A stretch of 64,000 nucleotides of DNA, taken from Escherichia coli (GTDB lineage Bacteria > Pseudomonadota > Gammaproteobacteria > Enterobacterales > Enterobacteriaceae). The stretch lies in NCBI RefSeq assembly GCF_003334385.1, contig NZ_QOWN01000002.1, one strand, 5' to 3'. Below are positions 1,417 to 64,000 of the stretch, piece after piece. The notes beneath the pieces were generated by a model. It was not told the DNA's origin. It saw only the letters and a list, made by a program, of their open reading frames with translations, and did not search any database. A program made the translations under genes and the position numbers. Within the stretch, counting starts at the first letter, position 1; each line of letters starts with the position of its first letter.

Positions 1417-1690
1417 AATTTCTCGCTCAATATTTTGTAGGGCTTATTATTTTTTTCCGAGCCGCATCAAGGCGATATGCGGTCTACGTTTTTGCAGGCG
1501 AGTTATTAGAATAAAGAAATGATACGCGCGAGGTCAGAGAAAATCTTCACAATCAAGACTTTGAAATAACGGAGATGGATAAGAATTTTCTACTAAATTA
1601 ATCGCAGGAGAATATTCATTCTCTATTTGCGGCAGATCACAAAAAAAAGGTGCACATTTGTGCACCCAAGGATGAAAGCTGACAGCAATG

Positions 1691-3055
1691 TCAGCCGCAG
1701 ACCACTTTAATGGCCAGTCCTCCGCGTGATGTTTCGCGGTATTTATCGTTCATATCTTTGCCGGTTTCATACATCGTCTCGATCACTTTATCGAGTGAAA
1801 CACGCGGTGCCGAGGTGCGGCGCATCGCCATCCGCGCGGCGTTTACTGCTTTCACGGCATTAATGGCATTACGTTCAATGCACGGGATTTGTACCTGTCC
1901 GGCAACCGGATCGCAGGTCAGCCCAAGGTTATGCTCCATCGCGATTTCCGCCGCATTGCATACCTGCGCCGGACTGCCGCCCAGTAGTTCAGTTAACCCT
2001 GCCGCCGCCATTGAACAGGCCACGCCAATCTCCCCCTGACAGCCGACTTCCGCGCCAGAGATGGAGGCGTTCATTTTATACAGCGCGCCAATAGCCCCCG
2101 CGGCCAGAAAATAGCGGGCAATTGACCGCTCGTTTACCGGACGACGGAACTTATCGTAATAAGCCAGTACTGCCGGAATAATGCCGCACGCACCGTTAGT
2201 CGGTGCCGTTACCACGCGCCCGCCAGCTGCGTTTTCTTCACTAACCGCCAGCGCGTACATGTTGATCCAGTCGATGACATTCATCGGATCGTTAGAGATG
2301 TTATCGCTGGAAACCAGCTGACGACGCAGCGCTACGGCACGGCGCGGCACATTGAGCGGACCAGGCAGCACGCCTTCAGTGTTCATCCCACGTTCAATAC
2401 CGTCATGCATCACTTGCCAGATACGGGCAAAACCGGCGTCAATTTCCGCTTTGCTGCGCAGCGCTAGCTCGTTGTGCATCATCAGACCAGATATAGACAG
2501 GCCGTTGTAATCACACATTTTCAGCAGTTCACCTGCTGAGTGGAAATCGTAAGGTACGGACGTTTCGACATCGTGCGACAGGCCGAAGTGTTCTTCTTCG
2601 ACAATAAACCCGCCGCCGACAGAGTAATAGGTTTTACTTAATAGCTCTTCCTGTCCCTTCCAGGCAGTGATCCGCATTCCGTTCTCATGGCGAGGCAACA
2701 TTTCGGGATGGAAGATAATGTTCTTTGCTACAGGAAAATCAACAATATGCGCACCAGATGCCACTGGCAGCCGCCCGCTGCGCGTTACTAACTCTATAAA
2801 TGCAGGGATCTCATCAATGACAACATCCTGCGGACTGTTTCCTGCCAGTCCCATGATGATGGCGACATCCGTGGCATGGCCTTTGCCCGTCAGTGACAAC
2901 GACCCGTACAGATCGACCACAATATGGCTCGTCGCGGTTAATAAGCCGCTACTTTCCAGCCGATCAATAAAACTTTTTCCGGCATTCATTGGCCCCACGG
3001 TATGCGAACTGGAGGGACCAATCCCAATTTTGAAAATATCGAATGCACTAATCAT
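1691..3055 (-). CDS. tdcG: L-serine dehydratase TdcG (iron-sulfur dependent)
   Basis: Translation [23 protein letters not shown]... is the L-serine dehydratase N-terminal signature; start trimmed 2 codons from the track ORF to give 454 aa. Confidence 0.9.
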
Positions 3056-3126
3056 ATCCACACCCTCGGATTGCCGTTCAGTGAAGTGGAGCGGAACGAC
3101 CTTACGACCGTCCCGCTCACGAGGCT

Positions 3127-3516
3127 TTACGCACTACGTACTGCGATGGCTTCAATTTCCAGCTTCACATCTTTCGGCAAACGCGCGACCTGCACACAGC
3201 TCCGGGTCGGATAGGTCGCCTGATGCTCATCGAAGAACTGCTTATAGACTTCGTTGATGGTGGCAAAATCATTCAGATCGGTGATAAACACGGTCATCTT
3301 GATGATATCGCCCACGCTCAGCCCGGCAGCAACCACGATCGCTTTGACGTTTTCGAGGCTTAAACGCGCCTGATCTTGCACATCAGCCGGGATCTCACCG
3401 GTCTGTGGGCAAACCGGTATTTGCCCGGAGGTGAAGACCATGCTGCCTAAATCAACGCCCTGAACATAAGGGCCGATTGCGCCTGGGGCACGTTGCGTTT
3501 CGATAATCTTTTTCAT
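3127..3516 (-). CDS. tdcF: Enamine/imine deaminase TdcF (RidA/YjgF family), 129 aa
   Basis: Internal start MKKIIETQRAPGAIGPYVQG... within the 150-aa track ORF; RidA-family N-terminus; tdc operon position. Confidence 0.9.
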   Translation of the reverse strand: MKKIIETQRAPGAIGPYVQGVDLGSMVFTSGQIPVCPQTGEIPADVQDQARLSLENVKAIVVAAGLSVGDIIKMTVFITDLNDFATINEVYKQFFDEHQATYPTRSCVQVARLPKDVKLEIEAIAVRSA

Positions 3517-3529
3517 ACATCCTCCGGCG

Positions 3530-5824
3530 TCAGAGCGCCTGGGTAAAGGTACGTGAAATAACATCCTGTTGCTGTTCACGGGTCAGTGCGTTGAAGCGCA
3601 CGGCGTAGCCAGAGACACGGATTGTCAGGTTAGGATATTTTTCCGGGTGCTCGATGGCATCCAGCAGCATTTCCCGATTCATTACGTTGACGTTGAGGTG
3701 TTGACCGCCTTCGACATCCGCTTCGTGGTGGAAATACCCATCCAGCAGGCCGACAAGGTTGGTTTTACGTACTGGATCTTCTTTGCCCAGCGCCGCAGGA
3801 ACGATTGAGAAGGTGTACGAGATCCCATCTTTGGCGTAGGTGAACGGCAGTTTCGCCACCGACGTCAATGAGGCCACGGCACCTTTGCGGTCACGACCAT
3901 GCATCGGGTTAGCGCCCGGCGCGAACGGTGTTCCGGCGCGACGACCGTCCGGCGTATTACCGGTTTTCTGGCCGTACACCACGTTAGAAGTGATAGTCAG
4001 AATCGACTGGGTAGGGACGGCGTTGCGATAGGTTGGCAGCGCTTTAATTTTCTTCATAAAGCGTTCAACCAGGTCGCAGGCAATGCTGTCTACGCGCTCG
4101 TCGTTGTTGCCGTACTGCGGATATTCACCGTCGATTTCAAAGTCCACCACCAGGCCGTTTTCGTCACGGATTGGTTTCACGCGGGCATATTTGATGGCAG
4201 ACAGGGAGTCCGTCGCCACCGACAGGCCCGCGATGCCGCATGCCATAGTGCGATAGACATCACGATCGTGCAGCGCCATCAGCGAAGCTTCGTAGCTGTA
4301 CTTGTCGTGCATGTAGTGAATGATATTCAGCGCGCTGATGTACTGCACCGCCAGCCAGTCCATGAAGTGATCGAGGCTGTCCATCACTTTGTCGTAATCC
4401 AGCACGTCGTCCATCAGCGGTGCTGTTTTCGGCCCGACCTGAATCTTCAGCTTCTCGTCCACCCCGCCGTTAATTGCGTAGAGCAGCGTTTTCGCCAGGT
4501 TAGCGCGTGCACCAAAGAACTGCATTTGCTTACCAATCACCATTGGGCTGACGCAGCAGGCAATCGCGTAATCGTCGCTGTTGAAGTCAGTACGCATCAG
4601 ATCGTCATTTTCATACTGCAAGGAAGAGGTGACGATCGACACCTGCGCGGCATATTTTTTGAAGGCAATCGGTAATTCTTCCGACCAAAGAATGGTCAGG
4701 TTAGGTTCCGGTGCCGGCCCCATAGTGTGCAGGGTGTGCAAATAGCGGAAGGAGTTTTTGGTCACCAGCGTACGACCGTCCAGCCCCATCCCGCCGATCA
4801 CTTCCGTCGCCCAGATTGGGTCGCCGGAGAACAGCGAATCAAATTCCGGTGTACGCAGGAAGCGTACCATACGGATCTTCATGATGAAGTGATCGATCAG
4901 TTCCTGTGCCTGCTGCTCATTGAGTACGCCAGCTTTAAAGTCGCGCTCAATGTAGATATCGAGGAACGATGCCGTGCGGCCCAGCGACATCGCGCCGCCA
5001 TTTTGCGATTTCACTGCCGCCAGATAAGCGAAGTAGAGCCACTGCACCGCTTCCTGCGCATTCTGCGCCGGGCGAGAGATATCAAAGCCATATTTCGCCG
5101 CCATTTCCTGAATCTGCAACAGCGCATGACGATGCTCTGCCAGCTCCTCACGCAGACGGATGGTGGCTTCCAGATCCTCGCCTTTTTCCAGACGAGACTG
5201 GAGATCGGCAAATTGCAGTTCGCGTTCACGTACCAGATAACTGATGCCATACAGCGCTACGCGGCGATAGTCACCGATAATGCGCCCACGGCCATAGCCA
5301 TCTGGTAAACCGGTCAGCACGCCAGATTTACGGCAGCGCAGCATATCCGGTGAGTAAACATCAAATACGCCCTGGTTATGGGTTTTACGCAGATCGGTAA
5401 ACAGATATTCAAATTCACTGTCCATTTCTCGGCCATAGGCGTGGAATGAACTTTTAATCATATTAATGCCACCGAACGGGTGTAGCGCACGTTTCAACGG
5501 CGCATCCGTTTGCAGGCCAACAATTTTTTCCAGCGGCTGGTTAATATATCCCGCATCATGAGCGGTAATTGTGGTGGCAATATTGGTATCGAAATCAACC
5601 GGCGCGTGGGTTGCATTTTCGATACGGATGCCTTCCATTACTTTTTCCCACAATTCCGTGGTGGCAGGCGTCGCTTCGGCGAGGAAAGATTCATCGCCTT
5701 CATACGGTGTATAGTTATGTTGAATAAAATCGCGGACATTAATTTCGTTTTTCCAGTCCGTACCTTTAAAGCCAAGCCATGCGTCGGCGTACAGCTTATC
5801 GCTGGTATCAATATCTACCTTCAT
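3530..5824 (-). CDS. tdcE: 2-ketobutyrate/pyruvate formate-lyase TdcE (glycyl radical enzyme), 764 aa
   Basis: 764-aa ORF ending ...[29 protein letters not shown], the glycyl-radical C-terminal motif of PFL-type enzymes; tdc operon context. Confidence 0.95.
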
Positions 5825-13621: not shown

Positions 13622-13998
<377 letters not shown>

Positions 13999-37051: not shown

Positions 37052-38143
37052 ATGAAAAGAGCGCCTCTTATAACAGGTCTTTTGTTGATATCCACATCCT
37101 GCGCTTATGCCTCCTCAGGAGGGTGTGGAGCCGACAGCACTAGCGGTGCGACAAATTACAGCAGTGTGGTTGATGATGTTACGGTGAACCAGACAGATAA
37201 CGTGACAGGACGGGAGTTTACCTCTGCAACGCTAAGTAGCACTAACTGGCAATACGCCTGTTCCTGCTCTGCGGGTAAGGCAGTTAAACTTGTCTATATG
37301 GTCAGCCCCGTACTTACCACCACTGGACATCAGACAGGATATTACAAACTCAATGACAGCCTGGATATTAAAACCACATTACAGGCAAACGACATTCCAG
37401 GACTCACAACCGACCAGGTTGTCTCTGTTAACACCCGATTCACACAGATAAAAAACAACACGGTATATTCTGCTGCAACCCAAACGGGTGTTTGCCAGGG
37501 TGATACGTCTCGTTATGGACCCGTTAATATTGGTGCGAACACCACCTTTACCCTGTATGTCACCAAGCCATTTCTCGGCTCGATGACCATTCCGAAAACG
37601 GATATTGCCGTCATTAAAGGCGCGTGGGTCGATGGAATGGGAAGCCCGTCTACAGGTGACTTCCATGATTTAGTCAAGTTATCGATTCAGGGAAATCTCA
37701 CCGCCCCACAGTCGTGCAAAATTAATCAGGGCGATGTTATTAAGGTTAATTTTGGATTCATCAATGGTCAGAAGTTTACCACCCGCAATGCCATGCCAGA
37801 CGGTTTTACTCCAGTAGACTTTGATATCACTTATGACTGTGGTGATACTTCAAAGATTAAAAACTCGTTGCAAATGCGCATCGACGGTACAACTGGGGTA
37901 GTAGACCAGTACAACCTGGTCGCCAGGCGAAGAAGTTCAGACAATGTGCCCGATGTCGGTATTCGTATTGAAAATCTCGGCGGCGGAGTTGCAAATATTC
38001 CTTTTCAGAACGGTATCCTTCCCGTTGATCCTTCCGGGCATGGCACCGTCAATATGCGCGCCTGGCCAGTTAATCTGGTCGGTGGTGAGCTGGAAACAGG
38101 AAAATTTCAGGGCACAGCCACCATTACCGTCATCGTGCGGTAA
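37052..38143 (+). CDS. yraK: Fimbrial adhesin-like protein YraK, 363 aa
   Basis: MKRAPLITGLLLISTSCAYA signal peptide then two-domain adhesin-like sequence; track ORF extended 86 codons upstream. Confidence 0.9.
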   Translation: MKRAPLITGLLLISTSCAYASSGGCGADSTSGATNYSSVVDDVTVNQTDNVTGREFTSATLSSTNWQYACSCSAGKAVKLVYMVSPVLTTTGHQTGYYKLNDSLDIKTTLQANDIPGLTTDQVVSVNTRFTQIKNNTVYSAATQTGVCQGDTSRYGPVNIGANTTFTLYVTKPFLGSMTIPKTDIAVIKGAWVDGMGSPSTGDFHDLVKLSIQGNLTAPQSCKINQGDVIKVNFGFINGQKFTTRNAMPDGFTPVDFDITYDCGDTSKIKNSLQMRIDGTTGVVDQYNLVARRRSSDNVPDVGIRIENLGGGVANIPFQNGILPVDPSGHGTVNMRAWPVNLVGGELETGKFQGTATITVIVR

Positions 38144-38185
38144 AAGAAGACGTTGCGTTTTGATTAACGCAACGCTTCGGCACTG

Positions 38186-39046
38186 TTACCCCTGCTGCTC
38201 CAGCGCATACTTATACAGCGCATTTTTCTTCACGCCGTGAATTTCTGCGGCCAGCGCCGCCGCTTTTTTCAGCGGCAGTTCTGCCTGTAGCAGCGCCAGC
38301 GTGCGCAGGGCATCGGCGGGTAAGTCTTCTTCCTGTGCTTTATGACCTTCGACAATCAGCACCATTTCGCCTTTGCGACGGTTTTCATCTTCCTTTACCC
38401 ACGCCAGCAGCTCGCCAACGGGCGCGCCGTGAATGGTTTCCCAGGTTTTGGTCAGCTCACGCGCCAGAACCACGTAGCGGGATTCGCCTAATACCGCAAC
38501 GATATCTTCCAGGCTATCTAACAGACGGTGGGTAGATTCATAAAAAATCAGCGTGCGCGGCTCCGCTTCAATGGCTTTTAGCGCATCACGGCGGCCTTTT
38601 GATTTGGCAGGTAAAAAGCCTTCGTAACAGAAACGGTCAGAGGGTAAACCCGCTGCGCTTAACGCAGTGATAGCAGCACACGGCCCGGGTAGCGGCACCA
38701 CGCGGATCCCCGCTTCACGGCAGGTACGCACCAGATGGTAGCCAGGATCGTTAATTAGCGGCGTTCCGGCATCGGAAACCAGCGCAATGTTTTGCCCCTC
38801 TTGCAGCTTCGCCAGCAGCGTTTCAGCTTTTTGTTGTTCGTTATGGTCGTGCAGCGCAAACAACCGGGCATTAATCCCAAAATGTTGCAGCAATAAACCG
38901 GTGTGACGAGTATCCTCGGCGGCAATCAGATCAACGGCCTGTAATACCTCTAACGCACGCTGGGTGATATCCGCCAGATTGCCGATTGGCGTCGGTACAA
39001 TGTAAAGCTGGCCCTGAGAATTATCCGCCGATTGGTGTTGTTTCAT
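38186..39046 (-). CDS. rsmI: 16S rRNA C1402 2'-O-methyltransferase RsmI (YraL), 286 aa
   Basis: 286-aa ORF of the tetrapyrrole-methylase-like family (…[22 protein letters not shown]…). Confidence 0.95.
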
Positions 39047-39110
39047 TGTGTCGTCCGTATTGCCGATTTAATATTGAGCATTGCGTAAAAAAAATATCAC
39101 TGGATACATT

Positions 39111-41147
39111 ATGGTACCCTCAACATTTTCTCGTTTGAAAGCCGCGCGTTGTCTGCCTGTTGTTCTGGCAGCCCTGATTTTCGCCGGTTGTGGCACCCAT
39201 ACTCCCGATCAGTCCACTGCTTATATGCAGGGCACGGCGCAGGCTGATTCTGCCTTTTATCTTCAGCAGATGCAGCAAAGCTCTGATGATACCAGGATCA
39301 ACTGGCAATTACTCGCCATTCGTGCACTGGTGAAAGAAGGTAAAACCGGGCAGGCGGTTGAGTTGTTTAACCAACTACCGCAAGAACTGAACGATGCTCA
39401 GCGTCGCGAGAAAACACTGCTGGCGGTAGAGATTAAACTGGCGCAGAAAGATTTTGCTGGCGCGCAAAACTTGCTGGCGAAAATCACACCTGCCGATTTA
39501 GAACAAAACCAGCAAGCGCGTTACTGGCAGGCAAAAATCGATGCCAGCCAGGGGCGTCCTTCCATTGATTTACTGCGCGCGTTAATTGCTCAGGAACCGC
39601 TGCTTGGCGCGAAAGAAAAACAGCAGAATATTGATGCCACCTGGCAGGCGCTCTCCTCCATGACTCAGGAACAGGCGAATACGCTGGTGATCAACGCCGA
39701 CGAAAATATTCTGCAAGGCTGGCTGGATCTGCAGCGCGTCTGGTTTGATAACCGTAACGATCCCGACATGATGAAAGCCGGGATCGCCGACTGGCAGAAA
39801 CGTTATCCGAACAATCCGGGCGCGAAAATGCTGCCAACGCAGTTGGTTAACGTAAAAGCGTTTAAACCAGCCTCGACCAACAAAATCGCCCTGCTGTTGC
39901 CACTGAATGGCCAGGCAGCGGTATTTGGTCGCACTATTCAGCAAGGCTTTGAAGCGGCGAAAAATATCGGCACTCAGCCAGTGGCAGCTCAGGTAGCTGC
40001 CGCACCTGCCGCAGACGTAGCTGAACAACCTCAGCCGCAAACCGTGGATGGCGTTGCCAGCCCGGCACAAGCCTCGGTTAGCGATCTGACCGGTGAACAG
40101 CCTGCAGCCCAGCCGGTGCCTGTAAGCGCCCCGGCGACAAGCACCGCAGCGGTAAGCGCACCCGCAAATCCATCCGCAGAGCTGAAAATCTACGATACCT
40201 CATCACAACCACTTAGCCAGATCTTAAGCCAGGTTCAGCAGGATGGCGCGAGTATTGTGGTCGGTCCGTTGCTGAAAAATAACGTTGAAGAGTTGCTGAA
40301 GAGCAACACTCCGCTGAACGTACTGGCACTGAACCAGCCGGAGAATATCGAAAATCGCGTCAATATTTGTTACTTCGCGCTTTCACCGGAAGACGAAGCG
40401 CGCGATGCAGCGCGTCATATTCGTGACCAGGGTAAACAAGCGCCGCTGGTGCTGATCCCACGCAGTTCATTGGGCGATCGCGTAGCCAATGCGTTTGCGC
40501 AAGAGTGGCAGAAACTGGGCGGCGGCACCGTTCTGCAACAAAAATTTGGTTCCACCAGCGAATTACGCGCGGGTGTTAACGGCGGTTCTGGTATTGCTTT
40601 AACGGGTAGCCCGATTACTCTCAGAGCGACAACCGACTCCGGCATGACGACCAACAATCCAACGCTGCAAACCACGCCAACCGATGACCAGTTCACCAAT
40701 AATGGCGGTCGTGTCGATGCGGTGTACATTGTGGCAACGCCGGGTGAAATCGCTTTTATCAAACCGATGATCGCCATGCGTAACGGTAGCCAGAGCGGTG
40801 CAACGCTGTACGCCAGCTCCCGCAGTGCGCAAGGGACCGCTGGCCCGGATTTCCGACTGGAGATGGAAGGCTTGCAGTACAGCGAAATCCCGATGCTGGC
40901 AGGCGGTAATCTACCGTTAATGCAGCAGGCACTCAGCGCGGTGAATAACGATTATTCACTGGCTCGCATGTATGCGATGGGCGTCGATGCCTGGTCGCTG
41001 GCAAATCATTTCTCACAAATGCGCCAGGTTCAGGGTTTTGAAATCAACGGTAATACCGGAAGCCTGACGGCTAACCCGGATTGCGTGATTAACAGGAACT
41101 TATCATGGCTACAGTACCAACAAGGTCAGGTAGTCCCCGTCAGTTAA
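39111..41147 (+). CDS. lpoA: Outer-membrane lipoprotein LpoA (PBP1A activator), 678 aa
   Basis: Lipoprotein signal with lipobox …[10 protein letters not shown]-like N domain, Ala/Pro-rich linker, C-terminal binding-protein-like domain. Confidence 0.95.
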
Positions 41148-41500
41148 CCACCAAACAGACCGGCGATGCGTGGGAAGCACAAGCGCGTCGCTGGCTGGAA
41201 GGCAAAGGACTGCGGTTTATCGCCGCTAACGTGAACGAGCGTGGCGGCGAGATCGATCTGATAATGCGTGAAGGCCGGACCACCATTTTTGTCGAGGTAC
41301 GCTATCGCCGCTCTGCGCTTTATGGCGGCGCGGCAGCCAGTGTGACCCGCAGCAAACAACACAAATTATTACAGACTGCCCGCTTGTGGCTCGCGCGTCA
41401 TAATGGGAGTTTTGATACTGTGGATTGCCGGTTCGATGTGGTAGCCTTCACCGGGAATGAGGTTGAGTGGATTAAGGATGCCTTTAATGACCACTCATAA
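41105..41500 (+). CDS. yraN: UPF0102 protein YraN (predicted PD-(D/E)xK nuclease fold), 131 aa
   Basis: 131-aa ORF whose first 14 codons overlap the lpoA 3' end in another frame. Confidence 0.9.
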
Positions 41501-41519
41501 TTAAGGTTTAAGGATTAGC

Positions 41520-42110
41520 GTGCAAGAAAGAATTAAAGCTTGCTTCACTGAAAGCATTCAAACTCAAATTGCGGCGGCAGAGGCGCTTCCGGATGCCATC
41601 TCCCGTGCAGCCATGACGCTGGTTCAGTCTCTGCTCAATGGCAACAAAATCCTCTGTTGTGGTAATGGAACTTCCGCTGCCAATGCACAGCATTTTGCTG
41701 CCAGCATGATCAACCGTTTCGAAACGGAGCGGCCCAGCTTACCTGCCATTGCACTAAATACTGATAATGTTGTCTTAACGGCGATTGCCAACGATCGCTT
41801 ACATGATGAAGTGTATGCAAAACAGGTGCGGGCGCTGGGTCATGCGGGAGATGTATTGTTAGCCATTTCCACCCGTGGCAACAGCCGCGATATTGTTAAA
41901 GCAGTTGAAGCCGCCGTTACGCGTGATATGACCATTGTGGCATTGACCGGCTATGACGGCGGCGAACTTGCAGGTTTGTTAGGGCCACAGGATGTGGAGA
42001 TCCGCATTCCTTCGCATCGTAGTGCTCGCATTCAGGAAATGCATATGCTGACGGTAAATTGCCTGTGCGATCTGATCGATAACACGCTTTTCCCTCACCA
42101 GGATGATTAA
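41520..42110 (+). CDS. diaA: DnaA initiator-associating protein DiaA (SIS domain), 196 aa
   Basis: 196-aa SIS-domain ORF (…[17 protein letters not shown]…). Confidence 0.95.
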
Positions 42111-42119
42111 GGAGAATAC

Positions 42120-42695
42120 ATGAAGGCATTATCGCCAATCGCAGTCCTTATTTCCGCGCTGCTGTTGCAAGGTTGTGTTGCCGCTGCCGTAGTGGGTACC
42201 GCTGCTGTGGGTACCAAAGCCGCAACTGACCCACGCAGTGTCGGCACCCAGGTGGACGATGGTACCCTGGAAGTGCGCGTGAACAGCGCATTGTCGAAAG
42301 ACGAACAGATTAAGAAAGAAGCGCGCATTAATGTAACGGCCTATCAGGGCAAAGTGCTGCTGGTTGGGCAGTCACCAAATGCTGAACTTTCGGCTCGCGC
42401 CAAACAGATTGCTATGGGCGTAGACGGTGCCAACGAAGTGTATAACGAGATTCGTCAGGGCCAGCCGATTGGTCTGGGCGAAGCATCTAACGATACGTGG
42501 ATCACCACCAAAGTGCGTTCGCAGCTCTTAACCAGCGACCTGGTGAAATCGTCCAACGTGAAAGTGACCACCGAAAACGGTGAAGTGTTCCTGATGGGGC
42601 TGGTGACTGAACGTGAAGCGAAAGCGGCGGCAGATATTGCCAGCCGGGTGAGCGGCGTGAAGCGGGTAACTACGGCGTTTACGTTTATTAAATAG
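42120..42695 (+). CDS. dolP: Outer-membrane lipoprotein DolP (YraP), dual BON domain, 191 aa
   Basis: Lipobox …LLLQGCVAAA followed by two BON-like repeats. Confidence 0.95.
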   Translation: MKALSPIAVLISALLLQGCVAAAVVGTAAVGTKAATDPRSVGTQVDDGTLEVRVNSALSKDEQIKKEARINVTAYQGKVLLVGQSPNAELSARAKQIAMGVDGANEVYNEIRQGQPIGLGEASNDTWITTKVRSQLLTSDLVKSSNVKVTTENGEVFLMGLVTEREAKAAADIASRVSGVKRVTTAFTFIK

Positions 42696-42704
42696 CAGCC
42701 CCTT

Positions 42705-42795
42705 GTAATGCCTGATGCGACGCTTGCCGCGTCTTATCAGGCCTACAACGATACAAACCGTAGGTCAGATAAGGCGTTTACGCCGCATCCGACAT
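42705..42795. repeat. REP/BIME elements between convergent dolP and yraQ
   Basis: gcctgatgcgacgcttgccgcgtcttatcaggcctac and taggtcagataaggcgtttacgccgcatccgaca. Confidence 0.6.
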
Positions 42796-42808
42796 GTTTT
42801 CCCTCAAA

Positions 42809-43849
42809 TCAGAACAACAGCGCCAGCCCGCCGACAATCACACCAGACACTGCCACCATCGCCCCTGTCAGCCATAAGGCTTTCGCCGGGAACGCTTTGC
42901 GCAGCATAATCAGTGACGGCAAACTCACTGCCGGGAGCGTCATCAACAATGCCAGCGCCGGAGCGGTTCCCATACCTGCCAGCATCATCGTTTGTACAAT
43001 CGGAATTTCTGCTGCCGTGGGAATGACAAACAAGCATCCTGCTACCGCCATCGCCACCACCCACATCAGGCTGTTATCGACAGCACCATCGGCATGGGGG
43101 AATAACCAGACGCGAGCGGCACCCAACACCAGTACTGCAAGGATGTAAACCGGGATCGTACTCCAGAAAAGCGTCCATAGCGCCCTGCCCCAGCGGCTAA
43201 AAAACCCGCCCTGTGCTTCCGGTATGTCAATTTCGACCGGTGCCTGCGTTTGCGGTGTTTCACGCACCCATTTTTGCACCAGCGTCGCAATCAGCAACAC
43301 CATCACCAGCCCGGCCACCAGACGAATCACCGCAAAACCCCAGCCGAGGACAAAGCCCATAAACACCAGCGTCGCCGGGTTTAACACCGGATTGCCCATC
43401 CAGAATGCCAGCGCACCGCCCATCGACACCTGTTGGCGACGCATTCCCGCCGCGACCGGAGCCGCACAGCAGGTACACATCATGCCCGGCAACGAAAACA
43501 GCGTTCCCAGCAGCGTGCCGCGAAAGCGCGATTGCCCAAGCGTACGCAACAACCAGTCACGCGGGATCAGCACCTGAATCAACGAACCGAGGATCACCCC
43601 CAGCACCGCCGCTTTCCATACCGCGAGGAAATAGATCATCGCGTAATCCAACGCCGCCTGCCATGGGTTAGCATCCGCCTGCGCAAGGATAGATTTACCG
43701 ATACTGTGGGTTTCGGCAGCAGTAAACGCTTTGCCGTAGTAAGGTTCCCATTTCACATACCAGAGACCGGCAATGACAACGAGAAAGAAAAGCGCGGGTT
43801 TCCACCACTGAATGGGCGTTGCCGCCTGAGATGAAGACTGACCAGTCAT
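42809..43849 (-). CDS. yraQ: Putative permease YraQ, 346 aa
   Basis: 346-aa multi-TM ORF; function not established. Confidence 0.9.
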   Translation of the reverse strand: MTGQSSSQAATPIQWWKPALFFLVVIAGLWYVKWEPYYGKAFTAAETHSIGKSILAQADANPWQAALDYAMIYFLAVWKAAVLGVILGSLIQVLIPRDWLLRTLGQSRFRGTLLGTLFSLPGMMCTCCAAPVAAGMRRQQVSMGGALAFWMGNPVLNPATLVFMGFVLGWGFAVIRLVAGLVMVLLIATLVQKWVRETPQTQAPVEIDIPEAQGGFFSRWGRALWTLFWSTIPVYILAVLVLGAARVWLFPHADGAVDNSLMWVVAMAVAGCLFVIPTAAEIPIVQTMMLAGMGTAPALALLMTLPAVSLPSLIMLRKAFPAKALWLTGAMVAVSGVIVGGLALLF

Positions 43850-43921
43850 AGCATTCCCCAGGAATAAGTTATGATAATTGAGCGCGTGAATATTACGCTC
43901 ACTATCAATTCTTGGGAATAA

Positions 43922-45182
<1,261 letters not shown>

Positions 45183-63717: not shown

Positions 63718-63735
63718 GCCCACCCCCAAGACATA

Positions 63736-63800
63736 AAAAAAGGGCCTAAAGCCCAGTTATTCTGTAGTCAGATAACAAAAAACCCCGATAAATCGGGGCT
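63736..63800 (-). terminator. Two rho-independent terminator-like hairpins between metY and rimP
   Basis: Reverse strand agccccgat-tt-atcggggt + TTTTTT (about 63774-63800) and gggcttta-ggccc + TTTTTTT (about 63736-63760). Confidence 0.5.
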
Positions 63801-63923
63801 TTATATAACTGAACCCTATAACCGCAACTGCGGTCTGGAGCACTTTCCAGAAGGATTTTTTCAAATCCCACTACGAAGGCCGAAGTCTTCACAGTATATT
63901 TGAAAAAGGACTCTAAGGGAAAG

Positions 63924-64000
<77 letters not shown>

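Follow-up and report, generated by a model that had tools for sequence, protein, structure and literature searches.

The gene for YraN begins before the gene upstream of it, lpoA, has ended, and the question raised by this locus is how ribosomes come to start yraN within a stretch that is also read for another protein. The 64,000-nt stretch of Escherichia coli DNA analyzed here (the window) was found by sequence comparison to be 100% identical to E. coli K-12 MG1655, and the RefSeq annotation of locus L001 places lpoA at 1612..3648 and yraN at 3606..4001, giving an identical 43-nt overlap. In the list of open reading frames (ORFs), the lpoA frame closes with TAA at 41145-41147, and ATG at 41105-41107 opens a 131-codon ORF (41105..41500). 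The overlap of 43 nt amounts to 14 yraN codons plus 1 nt and is out-of-frame, with (41105-39081) mod 3 = 2. Sequence, ORF list and RefSeq agree on the coordinates, the frames and the 14-codon overlap, all of which the original prediction had given correctly; a small correction is that the mechanical lpoA ORF begins at TTG 39081, while the annotated gene begins at ATG 39111. The lpoA/yraN junction is genuine, already part of the standard annotation, and an ordinary feature of a compact operon. The features of the locus are as follows.

38186..39046, minus strand: rsmI (16S rRNA 2'-O-methyltransferase), divergent from lpoA; from the ORF and RefSeq, an arrangement shared with outgroup loci L084-L087
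39111..41147, plus strand: lpoA coding sequence (CDS) including the stop, 678 aa, PBP1A activator lipoprotein; from RefSeq mapped from L001 and PDB matches
41090..41092, plus strand: TAA in the yraN frame, preceding the yraN ATG by 5 codons; from the sequence
41094..41098, plus strand: yraN Shine-Dalgarno (SD) sequence AGGAA, 6 nt (41099-41104) before the ATG; from the sequence and codon conservation
41105..41107, plus strand: yraN start codon ATG; from the sequence, the ORF list and a 79-species comparison
41105..41147, plus strand: lpoA/yraN overlap, LpoA residues 665-678 and YraN residues 1-14; from the sequence, the ORF list and RefSeq
41145..41147, plus strand: lpoA stop TAA; from the sequence
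41105..41500, plus strand: yraN CDS including the stop, 131 aa, UPF0102/YraN PD-(D/E)xK endonuclease; from the ORF list, RefSeq and TIGR00252
41520..42110, plus strand: diaA CDS, GTG start, 19 nt past the yraN stop; from the ORF list and RefSeq, with an NF008138 match of 444.7 bits
42120..42695, plus strand: dolP (yraP) CDS, 9 nt past the diaA stop; from the ORF list and RefSeq, with an NF008247 match of 324.6 bits

The whole ribosome-binding site (RBS) of yraN appears to be written into the final 18 codons of lpoA. The SD sequence AGGAA consists of the LpoA Arg662 codon (AGG) and the first two bases of the Asn663 codon (AAC; Lys AAG in other species), and the yraN ATG takes its A from the wobble base of LpoA Ser665 (TCA) and its TG from the first two bases of the invariant Trp666 (TGG). 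Comparison of lpoA codons across Enterobacterales revealed that Arg-17 (Arg662) is AGG in 65 of 79 species, which, owing to the kinship of the species, are not independent events, versus 1.1% (22/2015) of the other lpoA arginine codons. The codons used are AAC for Asn-18 in 70/70, TCA for Ser-14 in 47/49 and TGG for Trp-13 in 79/79. Of the loci with the AGG codon, 65/65 have a canonical start where E. coli has its ATG (the -43 site). All other species have AGGAAG or AGGAAA, compared to AGGAAC in K-12, so the K-12 SD may be slightly weaker. An RNA element at the junction was rejected, as there was no Rfam match within 38000-44000 and the stability of the 41060-41170 fold did not exceed that of shuffled sequence (z = -0.36), with the SD unpaired in the minimum free energy (MFE) fold.

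The comparison set comprised 79 phylogenetically related Enterobacterales species, and loci were retrieved with a 4-sequence YraN alignment, broad YraN alignments having no stretch conserved enough for retrieval. A canonical start (ATG, GTG or TTG) is present at the identical position in 72 of the 79 species, with ATG in 55, TTG in 14 and GTG in 3, the remaining 7 having CTG. The 13-codon extension of yraN is free of stops in 78/79 species, whereas same-frame windows elsewhere in lpoA are open just 53% of the time, and 0 of 114 anchored positions are open in at least 78 species. At both positions where a T-ending codon before AA, AG or GA would give rise to a stop, such codons are absent. Conservation of the overlap across Enterobacterales, proposed as a check with the original prediction, is thus borne out, and its length is constant at exactly 43 nt in at least three Enterobacterales families. 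With geometry, start codon, SD and open frame all kept across the 79 species, the conservation pattern indicates that the overlap is more than chance. The -43 architecture is not universal, given that the -43 site holds CTG in 7 species and that 4 species clearly or possibly start at -4; a yraN start overlapping the lpoA stop by 4 nt (xTGA) is found in L068, L070, L074 and L080, and Pectobacteriaceae offer CUG alone at both the -43 and the -4 sites. Elsewhere the two genes are separated by gaps of +27 nt in Moellerella and +12 nt in L087 or overlap by 1 nt in Pasteurellaceae (L083), and in more distant gammaproteobacteria the yraN start position varies widely.

LpoA residues 27-256 match PDB 2MHK and residues 31-252 match 6DR3, with zero mismatches in the printed alignments; its C-terminal domain shows homology to H. 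influenzae LpoA (3CKM/5KCN) up to and including the penultimate residue 677, and the outgroup genes upstream of yraN carry PF04348 (LpoA/LppC family). R662, W666 and G672 of LpoA are invariant, outgroups included. In an AF2 model of LpoA 349-678, fragment residues 317-322 and 325-329 form strands (pLDDT about 90), which suggests that the overlap encodes a conserved C-terminal beta-hairpin of LpoA. YraN scores 202.8 bits against TIGR00252 (cutoff 69.05; residues 10-131) and 144.8 bits against NF009150 (cutoff 81), aligns over residues 14-118 to the solved family member PDB 3FOV, and has homologs that carry PF02021. The Citrobacter, Salmonella, Enterobacter and Kosakonia homologs are also 131 aa long. 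Among 33 diverse homologs, E24, E49, D51, E64 and R68 never vary, and R66 is kept in at least 90%; the catalytic roles of the PD-(D/E)xK core residues are assigned from PMC1189080 and the preprint by Hardy et al. (bioRxiv 10.1101/2024.02.06.579203). The original prediction of a PD-(D/E)xK protein agrees with the profile matches and with the listing of YraN as such in PMC1189080. It has been demonstrated for the L. pneumophila, A. baylyi and V. cholerae proteins that the enzyme is a single-stranded DNA endonuclease that partners with ComM in resolving the D-loops of natural transformation (bioRxiv 10.1101/2024.02.06.579203), and by this family description E. coli YraN may likewise be a ComM-partnered endonuclease.

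Conservation in the YraN family alignment begins at G20, and the family alignment and 3FOV together place its onset at about residue 14-20; YraN residues 1-14 are an unconserved N-terminal tail ahead of the nuclease core. Selection at the protein level on YraN residues 2-14 was rejected, as the synonymous entropy of the overlapped LpoA codons equals that of upstream codons (0.664 vs 0.669, p = 0.72); an apparent 'MA.IP' conservation in YraN arises because LpoA reads W-L-x-Y-Q. The sequence of the tail would thus be dictated by the conserved beta-hairpin of LpoA, with dual constraint probably limited to the SD, the start codon and the need to stay free of stops. Both frames appear to be protein-coding through the overlap, which, on the conservation data, would make it a genuine dual-coding same-strand overlap.

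The gene order lpoA-yraN-diaA-dolP, originally predicted, is correct according to RefSeq and the diaA and dolP profile matches, and with divergent rsmI it is retained out to Aeromonas, Morganellaceae and other gammaproteobacteria. The arrangement of rsmI divergent from lpoA-yraN-SIS is kept in L084-L087; a BON gene comes next in L084-L086 and is missing there in L087. Spacers of -43 nt (lpoA-yraN), +19 nt (yraN-diaA) and +9 nt (diaA-dolP), shared direction, no intervening terminator and conserved synteny make it plausible that the four genes form an operon and are co-transcribed. The sole plus-strand terminator-like match between the genes is weak and lies inside diaA, and searches of the same interval for a terminator or an internal sigma-70 promoter gave only weak matches of a generic kind, in numbers below or similar to those in shuffled sequence. 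A competence-type CRP-S promoter within lpoA driving yraN was rejected; TGCGA-N6-TCGCA with at most 2 mismatches gave 36 matches vs 44.9 expected, none of them convincing near yraN. The 19-nt and 9-nt gaps make plausible the earlier proposal of one operon linking envelope and replication factors, which is qualified by the role of YraN and by the sigma-E promoters that dolP has of its own upstream (PMC7806268).

When a long overlap is annotated in a prokaryote, it is often a misprediction. The 43-nt overlap could be regarded as a gene-calling artefact, with YraN in fact beginning past the lpoA stop; its first 14 residues are unconserved and without protein-level constraint, Dickeya and one Cedecea are represented in databases by both 131-aa and 118-aa versions of the protein, and several relatives do start yraN at the lpoA stop. 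In E. coli, however, the lpoA stop and its preceding T read TTAA, so the xTGA start of those relatives is unavailable, and the in-frame start beyond 41147 that was named as refuting the original prediction does not occur before codon 43 (GTG, 41231), which falls within the conserved nuclease domain. The yraN frame contains no ATG, GTG or TTG after 41105 and before codon 43, codons 7 (AGG) and 31 (CTG) being the only near-cognates, and initiation at codon 43 would delete the invariant family residues G20, E24, A27, L31 and G35 together with the first helix. The in-frame TAA at 41090..41092 rules out an upstream extension, and the first start to follow it is ATG 41105; the SD, start codon and open frame are all conserved. 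A misannotated start is accordingly a highly improbable reading, and ATG 41105 is the sole usable yraN start in E. coli. No direct experimental mapping of this start was found in the literature (initiation profiling, Salmonella N-terminomics supplements), yraN (b3148) being absent from the supplements of INRI-seq (PMC9825163), TRAINSPOTTER (PMC13245402) and Salmonella riboproteogenomics (PMC11005335).

Translation of yraN very probably begins at AUG 41105 by SD-directed initiation from an RBS within the last 18 lpoA codons, without strict coupling to lpoA. The 30S subunit would most likely load in the ordinary way on a polycistronic lpoA-yraN-diaA(-dolP) mRNA, and ribosomes terminating at lpoA would not be needed to deliver the initiating ribosome. 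The original prediction held instead that the overlap implies tight translational coupling, in which ribosomes would terminate at the lpoA UAA, move about 40 nt back and reinitiate at AUG 41105, making YraN strictly dependent on LpoA translation. Such reinitiation would suit two genes on the same strand with no gap, it has a precedent in the phage fr coat/lysis pair, where bidirectional scanning serves a 34-nt overlap (Adhin & van Duin 1990, summarized in PMC10666635), and the xTGA overlap in L068, L070, L074 and L080 suggests that coupling is sometimes used at this junction. In native E. coli gene pairs, however, termination-reinitiation is efficient only from about -8 to +10 nt and falls by 80-100% at +38 nt, leading the authors to conclude that scanning is rare (PMC10666635); the -43 nt of lpoA/yraN lies outside this range, and the stop-proximal E. 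coli codon, TTA, is no start. Furthermore, a conserved SD on a rare AGG is predicted by independent 30S recruitment and would be superfluous for a scanning ribosome. As the yraN start precedes the lpoA stop by 40 nt and has a conserved SD of its own, SD-directed initiation inside lpoA is the more likely, and tight coupling, which the overlap does not imply, is doubtful. A further proposal, negative coupling, is that ribosomes elongating through the final 18 lpoA codons cover the yraN SD and AUG and hold YraN low, initiation being possible only when gaps open in the ribosome traffic on lpoA and the YraN:LpoA ratio being inverse to lpoA translation. Consistent with it, the whole RBS (41094-41107) lies inside translated lpoA, there is no RNA structure that would require unfolding, and low basal levels would be sensible for a nuclease acting with the competence helicase ComM. 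Moellerella, L087 and Pasteurellaceae, with their gaps or 1-nt overlap, manage otherwise, arguing against a conserved requirement of the pathway; we regard it as unlikely. Under SD-directed initiation as well, ribosomes finishing lpoA pass over the yraN site and may modulate initiation via unfolding or occlusion.

The closest known systems are short coupled overlaps (ATGA, -4; TAATG/TGATG, -1), which likewise involve same-strand, out-of-frame neighbors in one operon, and the junction in L068, L070, L074, L080 and the Pasteurellaceae locus L083 is exactly of this type. The E. coli overlap differs in its length of 43 nt, in a start 40 nt before the stop and in having its own conserved SD. The coat-lysis overlaps of phages fr and MS2 are likewise longer (34 nt in fr) and place the downstream start inside the upstream gene (PMC10666635); in contrast to the lysis start, which depends on coat termination and lacks a good SD, the yraN AUG is preceded at standard spacing by a conserved AGGAA(G), and this arrangement suggests independent initiation. 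RBSs embedded in the 3' ends of upstream coding sequences share with this junction even the codon choice bent for an SD, here the rare AGG of Arg662. There is no categorical difference from this class, what is unusual being the length of the overlap and its fixity at exactly 43 nt.

The arrangement has consequences for gene deletion, since any clean yraN deletion from its ATG also removes the last 13 lpoA codons. In the Keio knockout, the most widely used in E. coli, the design keeps the start codon only, followed by ATTCCGGGG... (quoted in PMC2625361), and from this sequence the lpoA frame of the Keio ΔyraN allele is expected to run ...TCA TGA. LpoA should then end after Ser665, losing 13 residues that include the invariant Trp666 and the terminal beta-hairpin, so that envelope phenotypes assigned to yraN would really be lpoA phenotypes. 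The Keio update paper makes no mention of gene overlaps. In a screen for synthetic lethality with lpp+21, yraN was the sole 'cytoplasmic' hit and lpoA was a hit too (PMC8824477), which is one candidate example of such an assignment. Taken jointly, the propositions that the Keio ΔyraN allele truncates LpoA and that evolution has switched the yraN start back and forth between an SD-driven site (-43) and a stop-overlapping one (-4) are, in our estimate, evenly poised between true and false.

The biology of the junction is routine, an RBS of a downstream gene within the upstream gene that is already in the reference annotation. Its practical meaning is that genetic screens or engineering here can mix up the effects of a cytoplasmic recombination nuclease and those of a periplasmic activator of cell-wall synthesis, and that synonymous-looking edits at LpoA Arg662 or Ser665 would strike the yraN SD or start codon. 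If the start does toggle between -43 and -4, the junction would constitute a natural test case for reinitiation replacing SD-led initiation. Lastly, the rare AGG held in most of the Enterobacterales sampled exemplifies how codon choice in one gene is held in place by the translation signal of the gene that follows.

On genome comparison, positions 39000-42800 share 100% identity with MG1655 and with several further E. coli genomes, and the query was matched in every one of the 5,426 complete genomes compared; by sequence identity, the window is E. coli K-12. The known RNA features elsewhere in the window are all expected for this K-12 region:

13622-13998, minus strand, RNase P RNA (rnpB)
56938-57109, plus strand, SraG sRNA
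57339-57453, minus strand, S15 leader
58966-59036, minus strand, naRNA4
63735-63835, minus strand, rimP leader
63924-64000, minus strand, tRNA-Met, at the window edge

The lpoA frame is closed by TAA at 41145-41147, and yraN (131 codons) is opened in a different frame by ATG at 41105-41107, leaving 41105-41147 common to both genes (43 nt, or 14 yraN codons plus one base). RefSeq has the same arrangement at the E. coli reference locus L001 (lpoA 1612..3648, yraN 3606..4001), so the overlap described in the original prediction is correct and a standing annotation; it is a known, ordinary feature, and the interpretation built on it is borne out only in part. When called mechanically, the lpoA ORF begins at TTG 39081, ten codons 5' of the annotated ATG 39111 (39081-39110); the ATG agrees better with both the annotation and the lipoprotein signal peptide.

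LpoA is an activator of PBP1A. NCBIfam confirms the identity of DiaA and DolP, whose genes follow yraN in the RefSeq locus after 19 nt and a further 9 nt, respectively, with rsmI upstream and divergent. YraN (UPF0102/PF02021) was for a long time a PD-(D/E)xK protein without characterisation (PMC1189080). It is now described, from the L. pneumophila, A. baylyi and V. cholerae proteins, as an endonuclease that works with ComM to resolve D-loops of natural transformation (bioRxiv 10.1101/2024.02.06.579203), in a paper that makes no mention of lpoA or the overlap. Given these identities and the sigma-E promoters that dolP itself carries (PMC7806268), the proposed operon linking envelope and replication factors is a fair description of a conserved gene order rather than of a functional link.

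The yraN frame is shut five codons upstream of the ATG by an in-frame TAA at 41090-41092, and past 41105 the next in-frame ATG, GTG or TTG is the GTG at codon 43 (41231), with an ATG further on at codon 54; short of codon 43, near-cognate codons are limited to an AGG (codon 7) and a CTG (codon 31). Among 33 diverse homologs, conservation of the YraN family begins at ~G20, with G20 and E24 invariant and near-invariance at A27, L31 and G35, and a start at codon 43 would therefore cost conserved core residues. Alignment with the solved homolog 3FOV begins at residue 14, and with distant representatives at query residues ~14-20. An AGGAA Shine-Dalgarno (SD) sequence lies at 41094-41098, 6 nt 5' of the ATG. 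Judged from the reading frame, E. coli yraN has no usable start other than 41105, including beyond the lpoA end, and misannotation of this start is very unlikely.

One genome per species was scanned, giving 80 Enterobacterales loci, and in the 79 usable ones the lpoA stop and the yraN frame were located. The overlap geometry is constant: the codon exactly 43 nt before the lpoA end is ATG, TTG or GTG in 72/79 species (55, 14 and 3, respectively) and CTG in 7. The TG of the start is formed by the first two bases of the LpoA Trp666 codon (TGG in 79/79) and its first base by the wobble base of the preceding codon, which is TCA in 47/49 loci where that residue is Ser. The SD lies within LpoA Asn-Arg-Lys, spelled AAC AGG AAG; its Arg codon is AGG in 65/79 species, whereas the remaining Arg codons of these lpoA genes are AGG in only 1.1% of cases (22/2015). 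The Asn codon is AAC in 70/70, and all 65 AGG loci have a canonical start at -43. No stop interrupts the 13 codons from the yraN start to the lpoA stop in 78/79 species; for windows of equal length taken from other parts of lpoA in the same relative frame, the open fraction is only 53%, and not one of 114 anchored control positions reaches 78 species with an open frame. T-ending LpoA codons number zero at both places where they would put a stop in the yraN frame. The species are related and the counts not independent, but the pattern is the one expected if a working SD, start and open frame are under selection.

K-12 and identical strains carry LpoA Asn663 (AAC, 41097-41099), turning the SD from AGGAAG to AGGAAC; at the other 79 loci this codon is AAG or AAA, for Lys. 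LpoA residue 677 (41139-41141) is Val in K-12 and Ala in its closest relatives (L002-L004; other E. coli and E. albertii). An extra in-frame TTG or GTG lies 24 nt 5' of the conserved ATG in Kosakonia, Pluralibacter, some Klebsiella and Mixta (loci L018, L019, L022, L032, L034-L036, L041, L047, L048 and L067, at about locus position 2977), with a further in-frame GTG at 2887 in L035. If used, the extra codon would give a 67-nt overlap, and gene callers could choose such starts; they are probably unused, because the ATG with its AGGAAG SD is kept.

The LpoA tail (...C-V-I-N-R-K-L-S-W-L-x-Y-Q-x-G-x-V-V-P) aligns with H. influenzae LpoA (3CKM/5KCN) to the penultimate residue, and R662, W666 and G672 are invariant, also in Aeromonas, Pasteurellaceae and Morganellaceae sequences. 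When LpoA 349-678 was modelled with AlphaFold2 (mean pLDDT 85; ~90 for the last 30 residues), strands fell at fragment residues 311-315, 317-322 and 325-329. Together, these observations indicate that the overlap encodes, as modelled, a terminal beta-hairpin of the folded C-terminal domain of LpoA. The shared segment is conserved protein in the LpoA frame and an N-terminal tail without conservation in the YraN frame, where the recurrent M-A-x-I/V-P is mechanically set by LpoA S-W-L-x-Y-Q. Synonymous-site diversity is 0.664 in the 12 overlapped LpoA codons versus 0.669 in 86 upstream codons (p = 0.72), and is lowered only at the SD and start positions (Asn-18, 0; Ser-14, 0.10; Arg-17, 0.40).

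Frameshifts within the overlap were seen twice. The E. coli protein P0004 runs in frame from the LpoA C-terminus into YraN at residue 12, as the loss of 1 nt from the CCCC run could produce, and in Leclercia adecarboxylata NCTC13032 (L050, ~3001-3241) the lpoA stop is lost and a stop gained in yraN. Both could be homopolymer assembly errors, or true LpoA-YraN fusions or pseudogenes.

The lpoA stop is TAA in E. coli and most Enterobacteriaceae, so the codon at -4 reads TTA or CTA, leaving -43 as the sole usable site. Four loci have instead the classic 4-nt overlap, a minority arrangement, with yraN starting on an lpoA TGA stop (~2990-3043) and the SD codon decayed to AGA or CGT:

L068: GTGA at -4; CTG at -43; AGA replaces AGG
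L070: TTGA at -4; CTG at -43; AGA replaces AGG
L074: GTGA at -4; TTG at -43
L080: ATGA at -4; stop inside the former 13-codon extension

Among the Pectobacteriaceae, Dickeya (L073, L077) and Lonsdalea (L065, L072, L076) have CTG at both -43 and -4, with no ATG, GTG or TTG at either, and CGT or CGC for the AGG codon (around locus positions 2977-3043, or 455-521 in L076, which is shorter). RefSeq holds both 118-aa (CTG at -4) and 131-aa (CTG at -43) versions of Dickeya YraN, with apparent CTG starts; Lonsdalea also has a TTG at -67. Outside the Enterobacterales set, the order rsmI<>lpoA-yraN-SIS(diaA)-BON(dolP) is largely retained (the BON gene is absent from the metagenomic locus L087), and the junction is fluid (minus, overlap; plus, gap):

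Moellerella: +27 nt
L087 (metagenomic): +12 nt
Pasteurellaceae relative: -1 nt
L082: -17 nt
Aeromonas: -80 nt as called; -56 suggested by 122-aa cluster members
L084 (outgroup): -43 nt; GTG within the Met-Trp codons

Tight translational coupling, as originally proposed, does not follow from this geometry, since the yraN start lies 40 nt 5' of the lpoA stop and a conserved SD is present. Measurements on pairs of native E. coli genes put the loss of termination-reinitiation at 80-100% for a distance of +38 nt, and the process is considered efficient between about -8 and +10 nt (PMC10666635). Obligatory reinitiation at 41105 by backward scanning from the lpoA stop has a phage precedent in the fr coat/lysis overlap (PMC10666635), which is 34 nt long versus 43 nt for lpoA/yraN, but the 40-nt distance exceeds the efficient range and this route is unlikely. 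A conserved SD kept at the price of a rare codon is better explained by ordinary 30S recruitment. The junction showed no unusual RNA structure (z = -0.36; SD unpaired in the MFE fold) and matched no Rfam element. Most probably, the SD directs ribosomes on a polycistronic mRNA to initiate within lpoA at 41105, and lpoA ribosomes in transit may raise or lower yraN initiation. Of the two routes, reinitiation is the less likely.

In the Keio design, as quoted in PMC2625361 from the strategy of Baba et al., the start codon of the target is fused directly to ATTCCGGGGATCCGTCGACC, and the published primer design gives the start codon plus ATTCCGGGG... On the quoted design, the lpoA frame in Keio ΔyraN would read ...TTA TCA TGA and LpoA would end after Ser665, which should strip it of its last 13 residues, comprising the invariant Trp666 and the conserved, modelled terminal beta-hairpin. 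A Keio-based screen found lpoA, lpoB, mrcA and mrcB essential in an lpp+21 strain, together with yraN, the sole cytoplasmic hit, which the authors dismissed as a technical artefact (PMC8824477). If the deletion follows the quoted design, LpoA truncation may be a simpler explanation for the yraN/lpp+21 synthetic lethality, which may really be an lpoA phenotype. In a separate Keio study yraN::kan was thermosensitive, and for the eight genes tested, yraN among them, complementation from plasmid clones was partial or almost complete (PMC5828445); not every yraN phenotype, therefore, need stem from lpoA.

What the analysis adds to a known overlap is comparative proof of the yraN start site, the placing of the yraN ribosome-binding site on two lpoA codons, a rare but conserved AGG and the Trp codon, and a caution for genetics at the lpoA/yraN locus.
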